DNA of 64,000 nucleotides, from positions 12,365-76,364 of the forward strand of contig CALXGQ010000005.1 of the NCBI GenBank assembly GCA_944387895.1. Direction: 5' to 3'. The translations under genes and the position numbers were made by a program. Origin of the DNA: an uncultured Clostridia bacterium (GTDB lineage: Bacteria > Bacillota > Clostridia > Oscillospirales > QAKW01). Positions 8,217-64,000 of the stretch are shown in pieces (position 1 is the stretch's first letter; each line of letters opens with the position of its first letter). The notes below the pieces were generated by a model that was given only the letters and a program-made list of their open reading frames with translations, was not told the origin of the DNA and ran no database searches.

Positions 8217-9303
8217 GTTCTTCAGCCCCCGCGCCTGCTGGAACAAGGCGTTTTTTCCTGCGGATCAAAAGCACTCCCGCCACGGCCGCGGCGGCAAGAA
8301 GGGCGATCCCTGCCGGAAGAAGCCAGGTGAGGGTGCTGCTTTTGGCGGTCAGGTTCTGCTCTACCACCTTCAGGGTGCCGTCCTCCTGTTTTTCCACCGT
8401 CAGCGATCCGGCGTTGTTGCCCTCCTGATCCTTCAGGATCACATCGGTTTCCTTACCGCTCTCCGGGGTTTCGGAAAATTCCGGCGTGTAGGTCGTGGTG
8501 GTGCCGTCGTCCTGGATGTGGATCGCTTCGCCGCTGCTGTCGTCGATGATCCAGCTCCCCGTGGGCTGGTCGCCGCTTTCGCTGCTTCCCGATCCGGAGG
8601 AACCGGCAGAGCCGGAATCAGAGCCGGCAGAGCCGGAGTCAGAACCGGAGGAACCGGAATCAGAACCGGAGGAACCGGAATCGGAACCGGAGGAGCCGGA
8701 ATCGGAACCGGACGAACCAGAATCGGAACCGGACGAACCGGAATCGGAACCGGTAGAACCGGAATCAGAACCGCCCTCCGCAGGATCGTCCTCGGAGCCG
8801 TCGGGAGCATCGGGCTGGCTATCGGTCTGTTCGTCGCCGGTATAGATGCGGCAGGGTTCTACGATGGGGTAGACCCGGGTCAGGTCCGCCTTGAAAAATT
8901 CCTGATAGGCGACCTGGATCAGCGTGCCGTCGTCCGGCGTTTCGGCGCGGATCCGGAAGGTCACGGAAAAGAGCTCCATATCGCCCCTGAGCACTTCGGA
9001 GGCGTCCGCCGCAAGGGCGTTGACCGCCGGTTGTTCCTCATGGGTGGCGTTGACGTTGATGATAAAAAGCCCGCCGGAGTTTATTTTTTTGCCTTCCACC
9101 ACCTCCAGAACGTCTTCATCGTAGGTCATGATGACCCGGAAGGAGGCGCAGACGGGGGCGTTTTTCACCGATCCGACGACGGTCACGGTATCGCCCACCT
9201 CGCCACGGGCGCCCTCCAGATGGAAGGTCATTTTTTCCTCATCGGCATAGGCGGCCGGCATCAGAAGCAAAAGAGCAAGAAGAATAGAGAGAATGCGTTT
9301 CAT
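8191..9303 (-). CDS. secreted, C-terminally membrane-anchored cohesin-like domain protein with (SGSDSGS)n linker
   Basis: 370 aa; signal peptide MKRILSILLALLLLMPAAYA; about 140-aa beta-sandwich with cohesin-like pattern (GDTVTVVGSVKN...FRVIMTYDEDVLEVV...FSVTFRIRAE); Ser/Gly/Asp repeat; C-terminal TM plus RRKKR. Confidence 0.6.
   Translation of the reverse strand: MKRILSILLALLLLMPAAYADEEKMTFHLEGARGEVGDTVTVVGSVKNAPVCASFRVIMTYDEDVLEVVEGKKINSGGLFIINVNATHEEQPAVNALAADASEVLRGDMELFSVTFRIRAETPDDGTLIQVAYQEFFKADLTRVYPIVEPCRIYTGDEQTDSQPDAPDGSEDDPAEGGSDSGSTGSDSGSSGSDSGSSGSDSGSSGSDSGSSGSDSGSSGSDSGSAGSDSGSAGSSGSGSSESGDQPTGSWIIDDSSGEAIHIQDDGTTTTYTPEFSETPESGKETDVILKDQEGNNAGSLTVEKQEDGTLKVVEQNLTAKSSTLTWLLPAGIALLAAAAVAGVLLIRRKKRLVPAGAGAEEHENRENAE
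8588..8772. repeat. tandem 21-bp repeat array inside the cohesin-like gene (encodes SGSDSGS units)
   Basis: Reiterated GAACCGGAGGAACCGGAATCA-like units visible on + strand; about 8-9 near-identical copies. Confidence 0.85.
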
Positions 9304-57365: not shown

Positions 57366-57519
57366 GAACCGCTCCTTTTTAAATGGACTGAAAAACATAC
57401 CTTCACCTCTGTTTCAGCGGCGCTGCCGCACCGCCGGATTTTCCGCATTGCCGGCAGAGCCCTTCCCGCTCCGCCGCGGGAAGGGTTCGTTTTTTTCGGA
57501 CTCTGCCTGGATTTGCGCG

Positions 57520-57803: not shown

Positions 57804-58649
57804 ATGAAAGAACACGTTATCTCAAAAGAAACCATCAGCGATTTCAAACAGCAGTTGTGTCTGGAGGAAAAATCGGAGGCGACCATCGGGAAATACCTTC
57901 ACGATATCAGGGTATTTGCGCAGTATGTCGGAAATACCTCAATCACCAGAGAAAAAGCCGTTGCCTATAAGCAAAATCTGATCGCGCAGGGCTATGCCAT
58001 GCGCAGCGTAAATTCGATGATCGCGTCGCTCAATAGTTATTTTGTTTTTGTCGGGCTTTTAGACTGTAAACTGAAATCCGTAAAAATTCAACGTCAGATT
58101 TTTTGCGCCGAGGAAAAAGAATTGACCAAAGCCGAATATGAGCGTCTGCTCAGAGCGGCCGGGCAAAAGGGGAATCAACGGCTGAATCTCATGATCCAGA
58201 CAATCTGTTCCACGGGGATCAGAGTAAGCGAATTGCAGTTTATAACGGTGGAAGCTGTGCGCAAAGGGGAGGCGGTGGTGTCCCTGAAAGGAAAAACGCG
58301 AACGATCTTTATCGTTAAAGAACTGCGTAAAAAATTGCTCCGCTATATAGCGGAGCAGAAAATCGCAGCAGGAAATGTGTTTGTAACAAGAACAGGCAAG
58401 CCTGTCAGCCGATCCAACATCTGGAGAGAAATGAAAAATCTTTGCAGGCAGGCGGGCGTCAATCCTGATAAAGTATTTCCGCATAATCTTCGTCATCTGT
58501 TTGCCCGTACATTTTATGGCATTGAAAAGGATATCGCGAAACTTGCCGATATTCTCGGCCATTCCAGTATCAATACAACGCGCATTTATATCATGACAAC
58601 AGGAAACGAGCATCGCCAGCGTATGGAACGGATGTGCCTGATCATATAA
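57804..58649 (+). CDS. tyrosine-type site-specific recombinase (XerC/D-like, candidate invertase)
   Basis: 281 aa; N-terminal SAM-like core-binding domain; catalytic signature GIRVSEL (R), HNLRHLF (HxxR), LGHSSINTTRIY (H...Y); GGAGG RBS. Confidence 0.9.
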   Translation: MKEHVISKETISDFKQQLCLEEKSEATIGKYLHDIRVFAQYVGNTSITREKAVAYKQNLIAQGYAMRSVNSMIASLNSYFVFVGLLDCKLKSVKIQRQIFCAEEKELTKAEYERLLRAAGQKGNQRLNLMIQTICSTGIRVSELQFITVEAVRKGEAVVSLKGKTRTIFIVKELRKKLLRYIAEQKIAAGNVFVTRTGKPVSRSNIWREMKNLCRQAGVNPDKVFPHNLRHLFARTFYGIEKDIAKLADILGHSSINTTRIYIMTTGNEHRQRMERMCLII

Positions 58650-58670
58650 AAATTGTTGATGTAATCAGAA

Positions 58671-58693
58671 AAACAACATAATCCGTATTATGT
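58671..58693 (+). repeat. left recombination-site candidate, copy 1
   Basis: AAACAACATAATCCGTATTATGT; exact reverse complement at 58988-59010. Confidence 0.9.
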
Positions 58694-58733
58694 ACTACAT
58701 ATTGTTTAATAAAAATTGTTGATGTAATCAGAA

Positions 58734-58756
58734 AAACAACATAATCCGTATTATGT
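58734..58756 (+). repeat. left recombination-site candidate, copy 2
   Basis: Identical to 58671-58693. Confidence 0.9.
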
Positions 58757-58987
58757 ACTACATATTGTTTAAATTGGTCCAATAATACCGATTTTGCATA
58801 AATATTATAGCATACTGGGCAGAAAAAAACAATCGCCTCACATAAAAATCATAATTTTGCTGATTTTTTTGCAACAATGAAAGGCCTTTTTCGTAAATAA
58901 CGAACAAAGGCTTGCTTATTTGCGCCCTTTTTTCTCTATTTTGCCGCTAAAAGCGGATAAAAGAATAAAGGTCATTCGTGTTTTACA
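58757..58987. promoter_or_regulatory. candidate invertible promoter segment (231 bp; 294 bp if copy 1 is used)
   Basis: A/T-rich, ORF-free, bounded by 23-bp exact inverted repeats, next to a tyrosine recombinase gene. Confidence 0.6.
58804..58832 (-). promoter_or_regulatory. promoter inside the invertible segment, currently facing away from the operon
   Basis: Minus strand TTGTTT (58832-58827), 17-nt spacer, TGc-TATAAT (58812-58804). Confidence 0.5.
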
Positions 58988-59010
58988 ACATAATACGGAT
59001 TATGTTGTTT
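58988..59010 (-). repeat. right recombination-site candidate (inverted)
   Basis: ACATAATACGGATTATGTTGTTT; itself a 10-4-10 dyad ACAACATAAT-ACGG-ATTATGTTGT. Confidence 0.9.
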
Positions 59011-59106
59011 ACCGCACGGGAAAAGGCTTTTTCGCATTTCGGCCGCGGCGGAAAGCGGCCGATCGCAGCCCGAAGCGATAAAAATCTACAGAATGGGAGA
59101 AAAAAG

Positions 59107-59805
59107 ATGCAAGTGCGCGCAAAATCAAAAGCAAGGCCGATCCATCGGGTGATGACGATCATCGGGATTCTTTTATGCGTGGTATTCGGCTTTCTGCTGA
59201 TATGCAACCTGACCATTATTATAAAAGGATCCATCGATCCTTCAAGGCCGCCGTCTATAATGGGCACGACCCCGATGGTCGTTCTTTCGGGCTCCATGTC
59301 GGGGGATGCGGAGGATCATATTGAAGCCGGCGATCTGATTTTTGTCGGGAAGGCCGATCCGGAAGAATTAAAGGTCGGCGACGTGATCGCCTATATGGAG
59401 GAAGACTCCACTTCGGTGGTAACCCACCGCATAATCGAAATCAAAACCGCCGAGGACGGCACGCCGTTTTTCATCACGAAAGGCGACGCTAACAACGTGG
59501 AGGACGATACCCCCGTCACGGTGGACAGGCTGATCGGCAGTTATCAATTCCGCATTGCCGGGGTAGGTAATTTTGCTTTGTTTTTGCAAACGCCGATCGG
59601 GATGCTGCTTTTCATCGGGGTGCCCTTGCTGGCGTTTATCATTTACGACATTCTTCGCCGGCAGCATTATGCCAATAAGGAAAAGAAAAACACGCAGGCT
59701 TTGGAGGAAGAGCTGGAGCGGCTCCGGGCCGCCGCAAATAAGCAGAGTGAAGCCGGGCAGGACGAAGCCAAGCAGAGCGAAGCCAGGCAGGGCGCAGATC
59801 TTTAA
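59107..59805 (+). CDS. archaeal-type signal peptidase I (SipW-like), copy 1
   Basis: Start MQVRAKSK (ATG 59107); N-terminal TM, catalytic Ser box VVLSGSMSGD, His box VVTHRIIE, KGDAN, C-terminal TM plus charged tail. Confidence 0.8.
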   Translation: MQVRAKSKARPIHRVMTIIGILLCVVFGFLLICNLTIIIKGSIDPSRPPSIMGTTPMVVLSGSMSGDAEDHIEAGDLIFVGKADPEELKVGDVIAYMEEDSTSVVTHRIIEIKTAEDGTPFFITKGDANNVEDDTPVTVDRLIGSYQFRIAGVGNFALFLQTPIGMLLFIGVPLLAFIIYDILRRQHYANKEKKNTQALEEELERLRAAANKQSEAGQDEAKQSEARQGADL

Positions 59806-59945
59806 TTTTGTATATCTGCCCGAAGGTGGCCACGCACCGGTGGGATGAAGATATAATCGTGAGGATATCTCACCCCCGGCCAATAGAAGCCGGGAAAAAA
59901 TCAACAGCCGATAACGCGGCAAAATATGAAAAGGAGGACAATTCG

Positions 59946-60599
59946 GTGAAAAAGAATTGGACAATGAGAGTGGGAGTTGCTCTGGTGGCACTCACCCTTA
60001 TCACTTCTTGTTTTGTGGGCGGAACATTTGCAAAATACACCACAGCAGGCACAGGCACCGACTCTGCAAGAGTTGCAAGGTTCGGCGTGACTGTAACGGC
60101 AAACGGCAACATGTTTACAGACGAATATGCCAACGCTGACAATTCAGTAACAGTTGTCGGTCGAGGCGGCGCAAAGGTTGTGGCGCCCGGCACAAGTGGC
60201 GATATGGCATCCATGACTTTGCATGGTGAACCCGAAGTCGACGTAAAGGTTACATATGAAGCGATGGTTGAGCTGAGCAACAATTGGGTAGACGAAGACG
60301 GTGACTTCTATTTCCCCCTTGATATCATCGTAAACAAGCAGGAAGTTGACCTTTCAGGCGCAAAAAACAAAGACGCTGTGACTTCTGCCGTTGCCACTGC
60401 CATCAAAAATTATTCTAAAACATATAAGGCCGGCACAAATCTTTCTACGGTTGGCGCTGATTCTTTGGCAATTTCCTGGAAATGGGATTTTGAAGGCAAT
60501 AACGATGTGAATGATACCTACCTTGGCGATCAGGCCAATAAAGGAAATGCCGGCAGAATTACCATCGGTGTCAAGACCACGGTAACGCAAGTAGACTGA
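59946..60599 (+). CDS. TasA/camelysin-like secreted protein 1 with SipW-cognate-style signal peptide
   Basis: GTG 59946 behind AAGGAGGA (ATG 59964 alternative); KKNWTMRVGVALVALTLITSCFVGGTFAKYT then ARVARFGV; about 190-aa predicted beta-rich body. Confidence 0.65.
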   Translation: MKKNWTMRVGVALVALTLITSCFVGGTFAKYTTAGTGTDSARVARFGVTVTANGNMFTDEYANADNSVTVVGRGGAKVVAPGTSGDMASMTLHGEPEVDVKVTYEAMVELSNNWVDEDGDFYFPLDIIVNKQEVDLSGAKNKDAVTSAVATAIKNYSKTYKAGTNLSTVGADSLAISWKWDFEGNNDVNDTYLGDQANKGNAGRITIGVKTTVTQVD

Positions 60600-60632
60600 T
60601 ATAACGCATATGCAAAAAGCGATCGGAGTTTC

Positions 60633-60658
60633 CCCTGCCAGGTGTGGCACTGGCAGGG
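60633..60658 (+). other. GC-rich hairpin after the first TasA-like gene, no U tract
   Basis: CCCTGCCAG-GTGTGGCA-CTGGCAGGG. Confidence 0.6.
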
Positions 60659-60741
60659 TGGCTCTTGAGCTTATATTGGCAGGATAAAAGCCTGGCCTGT
60701 CAATACAAGTTCAAGAACAAAAAGGTTAACGGAGGCAGGTC

Positions 60742-61503
60742 GTGAATACGAAACTGAAAAATTCCATTGACTGGTTGCTGCCGGCATTTTTGATACTTTT
60801 TATTTTAGAGGTGATCGCGTTTCCTTTCGCGGTGGGGCTGACCTATGCGGGGCGCAGCGAGGATCCCGATCACACCCTCACCTATCAGGCCCGGAAGCTG
60901 ACCTGGAGCGCCGTGGAGGCGATAGACGCAAACGGTGCCGCCCGGCTTTCCATTTTCGACGCGGAATATCAAAGCGTATCCGCTTCAGACGGCAGCGCGG
61001 TGATCGCCCCCGGAACAGAAGGGTTCCATATCATCCGTTTCAAAAATAACGCGGATCATAAAATTGCGTTTACGGCGGTTCTTTATGCGATTCCCAGCGA
61101 TAGCGCCCTGCCGGTAGAGGCGAGCCTCTCCGACGGCGCTTTTGCCGACGCCGCGCCCAATCGGCTGCCCGAAGGGGTAAAAGAGGAGCAGGTCATCCGC
61201 TCCGTTTCCGGCAGCGTAAACAAAAGCGAGATCGTCGACTTTGATATATCCTGGCTTTGGCAGTATGAAACCGGCGCGGAGCAGGATCGGATCGACGTTG
61301 ATTTCGGCGATCGATCGGCAGAGGGGAGCCCTGATGAGATCAAGGTGGGCTTTTATCTTGTGGTCGAGGACGAGGGGGCGCTTCATCTGCCGGAAACCGG
61401 CGACAATACCCGCATGACCCTTTATATCCTGCTGATGGGGATCAGCGGCGCGATGCTTTTGATCCTGGTGATCTTTCAAAAACGGGAGAAAAAAGGCAAA
61501 TGA
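60742..61503 (+). CDS. LPETG cell-wall-anchored paralogue of the TasA-like proteins
   Basis: 253 aa, GTG start; N-terminal TM; shares VIAPGTEG and ISWLWQYE-type motifs with 59946 gene; C-terminal LPETG, hydrophobic stretch, KREKKGK. Confidence 0.7.
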   Translation: MNTKLKNSIDWLLPAFLILFILEVIAFPFAVGLTYAGRSEDPDHTLTYQARKLTWSAVEAIDANGAARLSIFDAEYQSVSASDGSAVIAPGTEGFHIIRFKNNADHKIAFTAVLYAIPSDSALPVEASLSDGAFADAAPNRLPEGVKEEQVIRSVSGSVNKSEIVDFDISWLWQYETGAEQDRIDVDFGDRSAEGSPDEIKVGFYLVVEDEGALHLPETGDNTRMTLYILLMGISGAMLLILVIFQKREKKGK

Positions 61504-62036
61504 CCAAAGTGCTGCGCATAGCTCTCAAGATACTCAGCGGGGCAGTCACCGCCCTTTTGATCCTGATTATTACCGCCAATATTTACCTTTTGGCCGCCCG
61601 GAAAATAACGGGCAGGCAAAATGCCACCGTTTTCGGATTTTCTTCCGCCGTGGTGCTGTCGGGCAGTATGGCGGATGCGATCCAGCCCAACGATCTGATC
61701 ATTACCAAAAGCCAGAAGACCTATGAAATCGGCGATATTATTATGTTTGAGAGCGGCTCCGCCACGGTGACCCATAGAATCATCGACCGGAACGCCGAGG
61801 GATATATCACCAGGGGGGACGCTAATCAAACCGCCGACGAAACGCCGGTGCCGCCGGAAAAGGTGATCGGCAGGGTGATCGCCGTGATCCCCAAAATCGG
61901 CCGCGTCATTTCCTTTTTCGCAACGCCGCTCGGGATGCTGATCTTAGTGCTGGCGCTGCTTTTGGCGATAGAATTGCCGAGCCTGGCGCGCCGCAGAAAT
62001 CAAAAGAAAGGAGAAGCCGAGGCGCATGAAGAATAA
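61500..62036 (+). CDS. archaeal-type signal peptidase I (SipW-like), copy 2
   Basis: 178 aa; VVLSGSMADA, VTHRIID, RGDAN; N- and C-terminal TMs; overlaps both neighbours. Confidence 0.8.
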   Translation: MTKVLRIALKILSGAVTALLILIITANIYLLAARKITGRQNATVFGFSSAVVLSGSMADAIQPNDLIITKSQKTYEIGDIIMFESGSATVTHRIIDRNAEGYITRGDANQTADETPVPPEKVIGRVIAVIPKIGRVISFFATPLGMLILVLALLLAIELPSLARRRNQKKGEAEAHEE

Positions 62037-62640
62037 AGCCGTCAAAATACCCTTCAAAAGAATTCTGCTCTATTTGTGCGTCACGCTGTTTCTTGCCACG
62101 GGCGTCACCTTTTCAAAATACATAACCCGCTCCGAAGGCGGCGACGGCGCGCGGGTCGCCAGGTTTGGAGAGCTGGCGCTCTATGAAACGGAAAACGGCG
62201 AAAAAGTAAACGGCCAAACCCTGATCTATGCCCCCGGCGTAACCATCACCAAAAATCCGGCGGTTGATTTTGCGTGCAATGAGCTTGCCGCTTATGTATT
62301 TGTAAAAATAGAAGCGCGAAACTGGCGCTTTGATCCGGCCGGGAACCGTTTTGCGCTGGTATACGAAAATACCGAAAAACTAACGTGGTCGGTCAATACC
62401 GCCTGGACGGCTTTATCCGGGCAGAACGGGGTTTATTATACTTATGTCCCTGCCGGCGACGCCCTTTCGGGGATGCCGATCATTCAGGGGGATCAGATCA
62501 CCGTTGCCGCCGATATCACCCGTTCGGAAATGGAGGCGGTGCAAAGCGGCATAAGCAACGTGACGTTTACATCCTATGCCGTTCAGGCCAACGGGTTTGA
62601 GAACGCGGCCGCCGCCTGGAGCTCGGTTTCGGCGAAATAA
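62026..62640 (+). CDS. TasA/camelysin-like secreted protein 2 with SipW-cognate-style signal peptide
   Basis: 204 aa; ILLYLCVTLFLATGVTFSKYIT then ARVARFGE, same motif as protein 1. Confidence 0.6.
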   Translation: MKNKAVKIPFKRILLYLCVTLFLATGVTFSKYITRSEGGDGARVARFGELALYETENGEKVNGQTLIYAPGVTITKNPAVDFACNELAAYVFVKIEARNWRFDPAGNRFALVYENTEKLTWSVNTAWTALSGQNGVYYTYVPAGDALSGMPIIQGDQITVAADITRSEMEAVQSGISNVTFTSYAVQANGFENAAAAWSSVSAK

Positions 62641-62663
62641 ATCCGGAGAGAAGGAGGAAGCAG

Positions 62664-64000
62664 ATGAAGAAACGAATCATTGCCGCTCTGCTGGCTGTTT
62701 GCACGCTGATATCAATCGGGCAAGCGCCCGGTTCAGTATCGGCAAATACTGCATCTTCTTATGATATTGAAATCACCGTCGACGGCGAACCGGTGAGCAA
62801 TGTTTCGCTCCCGCAGAGCACGAGAAAGGAAATCGCTGCAGAAGCTTCCCCCGCTGCCGAAAAAGGGGACTACAGCTGGCAGATCTGCGCGGAGATGCAG
62901 AACGATCTATGGGTCGATATTTACGGCGCCGAGGATCAAACGCTTACCCTTTCCTATGCGCTGATCTCCTCCCTGCTCGACGCCGCGGGAAGCGCCTATA
63001 TCCGCGCGGTGCTCACCGTGGACGGCAAACGCTATACCAGCGCGCCCCTCTGCGTCACGGTGGCCTATCAGGCAAGCCTGGAATCGGACGTGAACCCGCA
63101 GGAGCGCGCCGCCCTTAAAACGAAAGCGGGAAAAACGCGGGCGGCGGGAAAGGCGGGCTCCGATCTCGCAACGATAACCATCAACTATCTGGACTGGGAA
63201 AGCAGGGAAGAGATTTATTCTCCTTATACCGCCACCATTGAAAAAGGGACGGTCTTTGAGCAAAGCGTGATCAGCCCTACCTTTTTAGGCTACGCCCCCT
63301 ATACGGTTGCGGAGCAAGGGGACGGAACGTATGTTTTTACAGACGCAACCACCTATCTCCTGCAATATGCCGCAGGGGAGCTTACCGGGGACGTTGTTAT
63401 CAATATTTATTATAAGGCCATTGAGGTTTCCTATGCGGCGAGCTTTTTCTTTCAAAATGTCAATAACGACCTCTATACCGAAAGAACAGACCTTTATTAC
63501 AGCGGCAGAGCCGAAACGGGAACCATTATAGAGGATGATTTCCTTGCGGACCTGGCGGGGAACACCGAGGGCTTTAGTAAACTATATCATTATCCCGAGG
63601 CCGTTGCGGCGGACGGCAGCACCGTTTTTCAATGCTACTACGACCGCAACTACTACCTGCTGAAATTTGATATGGACGGCGGCTACGGCGTCGATCCCAT
63701 CTATGCCCGCTACGAAACGCCCTATATCGTCAGCGAGCCGGTGCGCTACGGTTATGTTTTTGCCGGCTGGGATTTGCTGACGGAGGATACCAACGGCAAT
63801 GGCGAGCCGGATCAGGGGGATGGGGTCGCCGACGCCCTGCCCGCCACGATCGAGGTGGGTAACCAAAACTACCGCGCGCTTTGGACCACTGCGGAAACGA
63901 CGTATGACGTTGTATATTGGCTTGAAAACGCCCGGGACGAAAATGGCGACGTGGCCGATAACGGCTATTCCTTTTTGACGTCCAGAGGCGATATAGCGGC
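62664..64000 (+). CDS. large secreted repeat protein (Listeria-Bacteroides/Flg_new-like repeat), 3' end beyond window
   Basis: Not in the ORF track because it has no stop in the window. ATG 62664 behind AAGGAGGA, and I translated it by hand without finding a stop. Signal peptide MKKRIIAALLAVCTLISIGQAPGSVSA; YYLLKFDMDGGYG...RYGYVFAGWDL repeat signature. Confidence 0.7.
   Translation, partial: MKKRIIAALLAVCTLISIGQAPGSVSANTASSYDIEITVDGEPVSNVSLPQSTRKEIAAEASPAAEKGDYSWQICAEMQNDLWVDIYGAEDQTLTLSYALISSLLDAAGSAYIRAVLTVDGKRYTSAPLCVTVAYQASLESDVNPQERAALKTKAGKTRAAGKAGSDLATITINYLDWESREEIYSPYTATIEKGTVFEQSVISPTFLGYAPYTVAEQGDGTYVFTDATTYLLQYAAGELTGDVVINIYYKAIEVSYAASFFFQNVNNDLYTERTDLYYSGRAETGTIIEDDFLADLAGNTEGFSKLYHYPEAVAADGSTVFQCYYDRNYYLLKFDMDGGYGVDPIYARYETPYIVSEPVRYGYVFAGWDLLTEDTNGNGEPDQGDGVADALPATIEVGNQNYRALWTTAETTYDVVYWLENARDENGDVADNGYSFLTSRGDIA

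Follow-up and report, generated by a model that had tools for sequence, protein, structure and literature searches.

Analysis of a 64,000-nucleotide stretch of DNA from an uncultured Clostridia bacterium (GenBank assembly GCA_944387895.1, contig CALXGQ010000005.1, positions 12,365 to 76,364; hereafter the window, with positions counted from its first letter) has led to the proposal that the genes from position 59107 to the end of the window belong to a conserved seven-gene cassette that builds a wall-anchored, phase-variable fibre. The fibre would be held together by donor-strand exchange, with the protein here called small1 as its shaft, and would be related to the BsaA fibres of Clostridium perfringens and the TasA fibres of Bacillus subtilis. 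A probability of about 70% is given to this reading.

As proposed, four paralogous proteins would be exported by means of SipW-type signal peptides, and endoplasmic reticulum (ER)-type signal peptidases encoded in the same operon would cut them after G-T-F-A/S, that is, after GGTFA in small1 and after GVTFS in a second small protein, small2. These cleavage sites are predicted by analogy with TasA, which is cut after GTWA and whose mature form starts at A28 (checked against PDB entry 8aur). Cleavage would free an N-terminal extension, K-Y...D-x-A-R-V-A-[KR]-F-G, to act as a donor strand that completes the incomplete beta-sandwich of a neighbouring subunit, giving a fibre with a small1 shaft; small1 is assigned this role because it occupies the position of bsaA, is hypervariable, and has a hairpin region after its gene. 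A paralogue with an LPETG sorting signal would be joined to peptidoglycan by a sortase encoded elsewhere and form the base or nucleator, as a covalent counterpart of TapA, with small2 and the protein p172 as minor or adaptor subunits and a large repeat protein as a co-expressed adhesin. An adjacent tyrosine recombinase would invert a 231-bp promoter segment and so make expression phase-variable, and the diversifying selection seen on small1 would be that on an exposed major subunit facing the host immune system or phages. Fibre assembly, the cleavage sites, subunit roles, promoter activity and the selective agent are what we infer from the evidence set out below.

Gene order and conservation of the cassette

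The original prediction had described six co-directional genes in this part of the window, and six + strand open reading frames (ORFs) with the products given there were indeed found, each preceded by a Shine-Dalgarno-like sequence. A seventh gene lies in L001, one of the related DNA contigs or loci (labelled Lnnn) that were compared with the window, which extends past the window end. The cassette consists of:

59107-59805, + strand: sipW1, 232 amino acids (aa), an archaeal/ER-type signal peptidase I with a charged C-terminal tail
59946-60599, + strand: small1, 217 aa, GTG start, candidate major fibre subunit, with the SipW-type signal region GGTFA/KY (the stroke marks the predicted cut)
60596-60745, + strand: structured intergenic RNA, GC-rich hairpins after small1, without a U-tract
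60742-61503, + strand: LPETG protein, 253 aa, a small1 paralogue and candidate wall-attached base or nucleator
61500-62036, + strand: sipW2, 178 aa, a second archaeal/ER-type signal peptidase I
62026-62640, + strand: small2, 204 aa, a second secreted paralogue, with TGVTFS/KY and ARVARFG
62664-64000, + strand: large protein, N-terminal 445 aa of 1538 aa, open at the window end, candidate adhesin
L001 17350-17868, about 3.3 kb past the window end: p172, the seventh gene, a 172-aa BsaA-family protein

Every sequence motif named in the original prediction is found in its place: SGSM at aa 61 of sipW1 and aa 54 of sipW2, THRI at aa 106 and aa 91, TFAKY at aa 27 of small1 and TFSKY at aa 28 of small2, ARVARFG at aa 41 and aa 42, and LPETG at aa 216 of the anchored paralogue. 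The description of the genes as tightly packed or overlapping holds for the last four, but not for sipW1 and small1, which are 140 nucleotides (nt) apart, nor for small1 and the LPETG gene, which are separated by 142 nt. The 150-nt spacer between the latter two has a minimum free energy of -55.5 kcal/mol (z -4.09), a stability reached by 0 of 200 shuffled sequences. Its hairpins, placed just 3' of the gene for the presumed major subunit, may be a processing, stability or attenuation element, and would serve differential expression or stability of the small1 message.

The arrangement was surveyed in GTDB species-representative genomes, with 80 loci kept from 292 stretches encoding a small1 relative. 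Nearly all of these loci belong to Oscillospiraceae, Acutalibacteraceae, Ruminococcaceae, Lachnospiraceae and unclassified Clostridia, and come from gut metagenomes. Both peptidases are present in 62 of the 80. The order sipW1-P-P-sipW2-P, with P a paralogue position, is found in 46 of the 64 loci having at least 3 kb of downstream sequence, and the full order of sipW1, small1, anchored paralogue, sipW2, small2, Flg_new protein and p172 in 23 of the 48 with at least 8.5 kb. A survey of gene neighbourhoods had been suggested along with the original prediction, and its outcome is that the cassette order recurs across Oscillospiraceae, Lachnospiraceae and their relatives. A cultured bacterium, Roseburia sp. 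AF12-17LB (L024), also seems to have the cassette.

Two signal peptidases

Both peptidases are members of the archaeal-type signal peptidase I family, as had been predicted, with TIGR02228 scores of 99.4 bits for sipW1 and 75.2 bits for sipW2 against a cut-off of 51.85; the two are 34% identical to each other. Alignment of 75 sipW1 and 59 sipW2 orthologues showed the Ser (SGSM), His (THRI) and Asp (KGDAN) boxes to be at least 90% conserved, so that the catalytic residues, whose absence would have counted against the original prediction, are retained in both. Because the family scores exceed the cut-off and the catalytic boxes are conserved, both are expected to be active enzymes. The Bacillus SipW equivalog model NF046067, with a cut-off of 190 bits, is not reached by either (92.1 bits for sipW1 and 71.4 for sipW2); judged by these profiles, the two are the same kind of enzyme as B. 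subtilis SipW, but not its orthologues.

With two peptidases and two small secreted proteins, a division into two peptidase/substrate pairs had been proposed. This arrangement is not favoured, as the cleavage motif and the ARVA[KR]FG strand are common to small1 and small2.

Four paralogues and their relation to BsaA and TasA

In pairwise comparison, small1 and small2 are alike at the N-terminus (43% identity over 47 aa, E 5e-8) and little beyond it. Profile-profile comparison with hhalign, using families built from the 80 related loci, revealed homology along the full length of the proteins: the small1 family matches the family of anchored paralogues at position 3 (99.4%, E 5e-22, 199 columns) and the small2 family (99.4%, E 5.5e-21, 185 columns), and the small2 family matches that of p172 (94.9%, E 4e-8, 177 columns). 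The extension that would be freed by cleavage, with its D-x-ARVA[KR]FG motif, is the most conserved part of the small1 and small2 families across species.

The link to characterised fibre proteins is made through p172, which alone in the cassette has a direct match to TIGR04090 ('BsaA family SipW-dependent biofilm matrix protein'). This model is matched by 30 of 31 p172 orthologues, with a best E of 1.3e-12; p172 of the window's own lineage has an E of 4.6e-8 and 33 bits, under the 60-bit cut-off. The protein has a conserved V-x-N-x-F strand together with an invariant Glu and Lys, and these may correspond to the isopeptide triad of BsaA. A profile search with the p172 family for a named BsaA gave, among the matches listed, solely proteins that were unnamed or called 'hypothetical protein', and searches of PDB sequences with p172, and with the large protein, were uninformative.

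A second line of evidence comes from intermediates. Three homologues of small2 (P0129, P0130 and P0134; E about 1e-26) match TIGR04088, a 34-position model of the SipW-cognate signal peptide, with 21.8-25.7 bits against a cut-off of 19. In the alignment their GTFAYLTAKTD..NTFTVG lies against TFSKYITRSEGGDGARVARFG of small2, placing GTFAYLT over TFSKYIT. A profile search collected 3882 small2-family clusters at 50% identity; among 140 representatives of the family, 13 match TIGR04088 and 10 match TIGR04090 (best 2.8e-6), and one matches the NCBIfam TasA model NF046066 at the chance level (E 0.008). Relatives of small1 form 2465 clusters at 90% identity, and among those listed there is no Pfam domain, the sole names given by the sources being 'hypothetical protein'.

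The original prediction had called the small proteins TasA/camelysin-like. What stands of this is a TasA-like cleavage region, the paralogy, and the intermediates, but a direct match to the family is lacking. From the paralogy detected by hhalign, the TIGR04088 and TIGR04090 intermediates, p172, and the weak fold matches described below, we conclude that the four paralogues probably represent divergent, unannotated branches of the BsaA/TasA superfamily that lie outside the curated TasA/camelysin family.

An inversion switch with a putative promoter

The predicted DNA inversion switch, which lies at 58646-59010, just outside the operon, is borne out by inverted repeats, a recombinase gene and inverted junctions. 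The elements of the switch are:

57804-58649, + strand: tyrosine recombinase, candidate invertase, 281 aa; Phage_integrase 91.7 bits, E 6e-26
58646-58771: perfect 63-bp tandem duplication holding both left arms (Tandem Repeats Finder: period 63, 2.0 copies, 100% match)
58671-58693: left inverted-repeat arm, copy 1, AAACAACATAATCCGTATTATGT, 23 nt, 100% complementary to 58988-59010
58734-58756: left inverted-repeat arm, copy 2, 23 nt, 100% complementary to 58988-59010, with 231 nt between the arms
58757-58987: invertible segment, 231 bp, its orientation in the window read as OFF
58804-58832, - strand: promoter-like site, TTGTTT, 17 nt, TGcTATAAT (extended -10), pointing away from the operon
58988-59010: right inverted-repeat arm, 97 nt upstream of the sipW1 start codon

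The recombinase is XerA/XerD-like by NCBIfam, under the equivalog cut-offs. Upstream of its gene there is a strong terminator-like hairpin at 57457-57488 on the + strand, with 13 pairs (9 of them G-C) and a T-run, which overlaps the 5' end of the minus-strand pth ORF.

The promoter-like site was missed by a consensus scan, its -35 hexamer matching at 3 of 6 positions, and was read directly from the sequence. Since it points away from the operon, the window would be in the OFF orientation; inversion would place the site about 160 nt upstream of the sipW1 start. A similar arrangement is found in a different species (L036), where a 56%-identical recombinase in the same position accompanies a perfect 28-nt inverted repeat with a 231-nt spacer and the shared core ACAACATAA...ATTATGT, and where a promoter-like site (TTGCAA, 17 nt, TGaTATACT) lies on the same strand and at the same end of the segment as in the window.

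Both orientations occur in nature. That of the window is found in seven sequences (the window, L001, L002, L003, L004, L090 and L091), and three contigs from three sequencing runs (L093, L097 and L098) open with ATGTAGT, the right arm and the right flank. In front of the right arm the window has GTTTTAC; the ATGTAGT of these contigs corresponds, as reverse complement, to the 7 nt immediately after the left arm, which is the junction expected after inversion. Misjoining of the contigs would be unlikely because the 23-nt repeat is shorter than the word of the Logan assembler, which we take to be k = 31. Several other contigs end at the arms, with L088 and L089 stopping at the left arm, L092 starting at the right arm and L096 just after it; the duplication of the left arm would explain contigs stopping there. 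The window, L001 and L090 carry the 63-bp duplication, and L003 and L004 have one copy. With its two left arms the duplication allows two inversions (231 or 294 nt) or a deletion between the direct copies. Metagenome contigs of the Joint Genome Institute (JGI) were scanned for the right switch junction with 0 matches, the organism being absent from that collection.

Predicted wall anchoring and the large protein

The LPETG paralogue carries its motif, a transmembrane (TM) segment and the tail KREKKGK, as had been predicted, and passes the sorting-signal models TIGR01167 (17.0 bits against 15.9) and TIGR03063, the SrtB-target model (21.2 against 18.15). Most of the 60 position-3 orthologues listed end in [SLVAP]P[KQE]TG[D] followed by a TM segment and a basic tail. 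Clostridial sortase B signals have the form (S/P)PxTG, which these endings resemble. The anchoring sortase is assumed to be a housekeeping enzyme encoded elsewhere.

The large protein could be followed to its full length of 1538 aa in L001 (12719-17335), and here the predicted Flg_new repeat is well supported, with four stretches matching PF09479 (E 5.8e-17, 62 bits against a cut-off of 27); the 445-aa part inside the window gives 18.7 bits by itself, under the threshold. It has an ordinary Sec-type signal peptide. Its C-terminus, ...DWSWRY...WLNGNS...N.KG, is conserved across species (L001 17100-17335 and orthologues) and, with F-V-Y-K-I and Y-T-V-E-Q upstream of it and the pattern K...E...WLNGNS, looks like a possible CnaB-type isopeptide module. 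In a number of loci (L011, L014, L017, L018, L034, L044 and others) the first five genes are kept and a homologue of the Flg_new giant is not recognised after them, which suggests that the downstream large gene may be an exchangeable cargo or adhesin module.

These two proteins bear on an alternative in which the cassette is a released biofilm-matrix system, its small1 fibres mostly shed, the LPETG protein tethering a fraction of them, and the large protein acting on its own in the matrix or in adhesion and co-transcribed by chance. Matrix fibres are indeed what TasA and BsaA, the closest relatives that have been characterised, form, BsaA oligomers of C. perfringens strain HN13 are released by sodium dodecyl sulfate (SDS) and have no wall linkage (10.1101/2024.11.04.621531), and no link between the large protein and the paralogues was seen. 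The retention of a sorting signal at position 3 in nearly all species argues instead for obligatory wall attachment, and the combination of phase variation with diversifying selection on small1 is typical of exposed surface organelles, so that a shed matrix appears unlikely.

Predicted folds

AlphaFold2 (AF2) monomer models of small1 and small2, with predicted local distance difference test (pLDDT) values of 75.9 and 74.8, agree in a beta-sandwich core modelled with confidence and in a disordered N-terminal region of 25-50 residues, which lies after the signal helix and before the first strand. The best PDB match to the small1 fold is the TasA fibre 8aur (E 3.4e-3, probability 0.75, TM-score 0.28), with CsuA/B, CanA, SafA, FimG and the PapG pilin domain among the further matches. 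For small2, SafA with its donor peptide ranks first (9.8e-3), the TasA-like archaeal bundling pilus 7ueg second (1.6e-2) and 8aur seventh (5.3e-2); cohesin modules are also among its matches. Structure prediction had been put forward as a check on the original prediction, and the monomer folds do resemble those of TasA and of donor-strand pilins, but the resemblance is weak. The disordered N-terminal residues would be compatible with their insertion into a neighbouring subunit.

That weakness, and the cohesin modules among the small2 matches, would also fit paralogues that do not polymerise at all and are instead beta-sandwich proteins of the surface, matured by SipW, with one anchored in the wall and the others attached to it or to the large protein; together they would make up an antigenic coat that varies, or a platform on which the adhesin docks. 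In C. perfringens, BsaB forms dimers and not long oligomers (10.1101/2024.11.04.621531). Such a coat is considered quite improbable. The D-x-ARVA[KR]FG segment is near-invariant while the rest of small1 varies, which fits a strand buried in a partner subunit, and in both models the leading fold matches are mostly donor-strand pilins.

Hypervariability of small1

Six strains of the window's lineage (L090-L093, L097 and L098) were compared with the window allele. Identity is 97-100% for sipW1, the LPETG protein, sipW2, small2 and the beginning of the large protein, and 81-86% at the protein level for small1. The small1 alleles differ from that of the window by 32-47 nonsynonymous and 1-5 synonymous changes, for a pooled pN/pS (nonsynonymous to synonymous polymorphism) of 5.0, and pairwise dN/dS (the corresponding ratio of substitution rates) runs from 2.7 to 19. 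The small2 gene has 4-6 nonsynonymous and 0 synonymous differences, a weaker signal of the same kind, and the other genes have 0-3 of each.

Codons 1-57 of small1, which encode the signal peptide, the cleavage region and the ARVA[KR]FG strand, are nearly invariant, and 71 variable codons lie beyond them. The variation spans about 540 nt, with 86 of 94 variable sites biallelic and patterns common to several alleles; about 79% of the variable nucleotide sites involve A, and codon positions 1 and 2 are favoured. Because the sites are biallelic, the patterns are shared, and neither a template repeat of small1 nor an evident reverse transcriptase was found in the 64-kb window or L001, the variability is attributed to strong diversifying selection with recombination, and not to mutagenesis by a retroelement. 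Targeted mutagenesis, such as that by a diversity-generating retroelement, has in its favour the A-involving sites and the concentration of changes at codon positions 1 and 2, yet it is very improbable, for besides those two missing components the biallelic, shared patterns over some 540 nt fit descent and recombination and not independent randomisation, and the A/G bias is also what exchanges among K/E/N/D/S/T/A/G codons would give.

Other features of the region

The guanine plus cytosine (G+C) content is 0.40-0.43 around the recombinase and switch (58000-59500) and 0.50-0.55 across the operon, with the neighbouring mfd and pth genes at about 0.60; this drop relative to adjacent housekeeping genes suggests that the cassette was acquired horizontally. 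Far from the operon and unrelated to it, positions 8578-8808 hold a tandem array with a 21-nt period, made up of 8 overlapping copies rich in GGAACCGGA.

Assessment and significance

Several results weigh against the proposed fibre. At the level of sequence families, small1, small2 and the LPETG protein have no significant match to Peptidase_M73, the TasA model NF046066, TIGR04088, TIGR04089 or TIGR04090; Pfam and NCBIfam scans of 83 small1-family members gave no match to any of these models, a 45-sequence small2 alignment gave chance-level family matches only, and the small1 family profile found nothing among PDB sequences. Alignments by hhalign with a single TasA sequence were not significant, though for three families they settled on one TasA region, residues 56-85 (the PG...NNGS strand). 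At the level of structure, every fold match has an E above 1e-3, with TM-scores of about 0.25-0.3. As to the wall anchor, the 64-kb window lacks a sortase gene, and a sortase adjoins the cassette in one related locus only (L070). As to the large protein, it has no sorting signal at its C-terminus, and nothing tested here ties it physically to the fibre, its co-expression being supported by synteny. A BsaA-like domain within it, which would have been the basis for a tip-adhesin model, was sought by hhalign, and none was found. For the switch, the inverted state is visible as a 7-nt junction only, and the putative promoter in the segment is a sequence match.

Beyond the conserved, wall-anchored fibre with a small1 shaft, a more far-reaching proposal can be made, namely that the cassettes specify a separate and widespread class of Gram-positive pilus, a heteropolymer of all four paralogues put together by donor-strand exchange and not by a pilus sortase. 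One paralogue would fix it covalently to the wall, the two specialised SipW peptidases would time or order the entry of different subunits, the giant repeat adhesin would be displayed on it, and in some lineages it would be at once phase-variable and antigenically hypervariable. This is regarded as a tentative and rather doubtful extension. If true, uncultured gut Clostridia would have in this heteropolymer one of their major organelles for contact with host or phage.

To our knowledge, almost nothing has been established about the surface organelles of the Clostridia that dominate in the gut and mostly have no cultured members (Oscillospiraceae, Acutalibacteraceae, Ruminococcaceae and Lachnospiraceae). 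If the cassette does build a strand-exchange fibre with a sortase anchor, it joins TasA/BsaA-type fibres and sortase-anchored pili, which are usually treated apart, and places the bsa system of C. perfringens in a much wider setting. The ON/OFF switch, together with an approximately fivefold excess of replacement over silent change in the presumed major subunit, would mark direct pressure from host immunity or phages, making the structure a candidate for a factor in colonisation, a receptor for phages or a marker for strain typing.

Comparison with known systems

It had been stated that no characterised system has this combination of genes, but the partly characterised bsa operon of C. perfringens comes close. 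Most strains of that species carry sipW-bsaA-bsaB(LPXTG)-bsaB-bsaC and a neighbouring srtB (10.1101/2024.11.04.621531). BsaA filaments were shown to be SipW-dependent (Obana 2020, PMC7395162), and their assembly by donor-strand exchange has been modelled (Kivimaki et al., 10.1101/2024.11.04.621531). The same group reported that genes of the BsaA/TasA family often accompany LPxTG proteins, sortases, signal peptidases and several paralogues (10.1101/2024.11.04.621531), and since such associations were already noted there, the general idea is not new. The bsa operon and the present cassette, for which it is the closest known system, share the order of SipW peptidase, main TasA-like subunit, LPXTG paralogue, further paralogue and large secreted protein; p172 matches the BsaA model TIGR04090, in the window's lineage with a score under the cut-off, and expression is heterogeneous in the population in C. 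perfringens as it would be here. The cassette differs in having a second conserved sipW in mid-operon and an extra terminal BsaA-family gene, in having a 1538-aa Flg_new protein where BsaC is a 70-kDa von Willebrand A protein, and in the lack of an adjacent sortase gene. DNA inversion would take the place of the two-component system with pilA2/RNase Y, and small1, small2 and the anchored paralogue are too diverged for a direct match to TIGR04090.

With B. subtilis tapA-sipW-tasA the cassette shares an ER-type signal peptidase with Ser/His catalysis and a substrate cleavage region of the form G-T-[WF]-A-x-[FY], and the TasA fibre is the best, though weak, PDB fold match of small1. An accessory paralogue that anchors or nucleates the fibre, the role given to TapA (PMC10151520), is proposed here to be the LPETG protein. 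The differences are the missing Peptidase_M73 match and the scores below the SipW equivalog cut-off, and, in the cassette, a predicted covalent anchor by way of a sortase substrate, four paralogues and two peptidases.

The switch likewise recalls the CwpV, flgB and cmrRST switches of Clostridioides difficile, inverted by RecV, in which a short invertible segment with inverted repeats at its ends, upstream of surface-structure genes, is acted on by a tyrosine recombinase, and CwpV too is antigenically variable between strains (PMC3080850). Unlike these, the recombinase here adjoins its own switch, the left arm is tandemly duplicated, and the genes are unrelated to cwpV. SpaA-type sortase-assembled pili resemble the proposed fibre in their LPXTG-type wall-anchored base and in the logic of shaft, minor subunit and adhesin, and perhaps also in the possible CnaB-type module of the large protein, but no pilus-specific sortase is present here, the shaft candidate has neither a sorting signal nor a pilin motif, and polymerisation would be by strand exchange and not by transpeptidation.

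In summary, the cassette is related to sipW-bsaA-bsaB-bsaC of C. perfringens and to tapA-sipW-tasA of B. subtilis, in a more elaborate form. What is new with respect to them is a widely conserved seven-gene unit with two peptidases, four paralogues and an Flg_new giant protein, a recombinase-driven inversion of a putative promoter that is seen in both states, and extreme positive selection on the presumed shaft.

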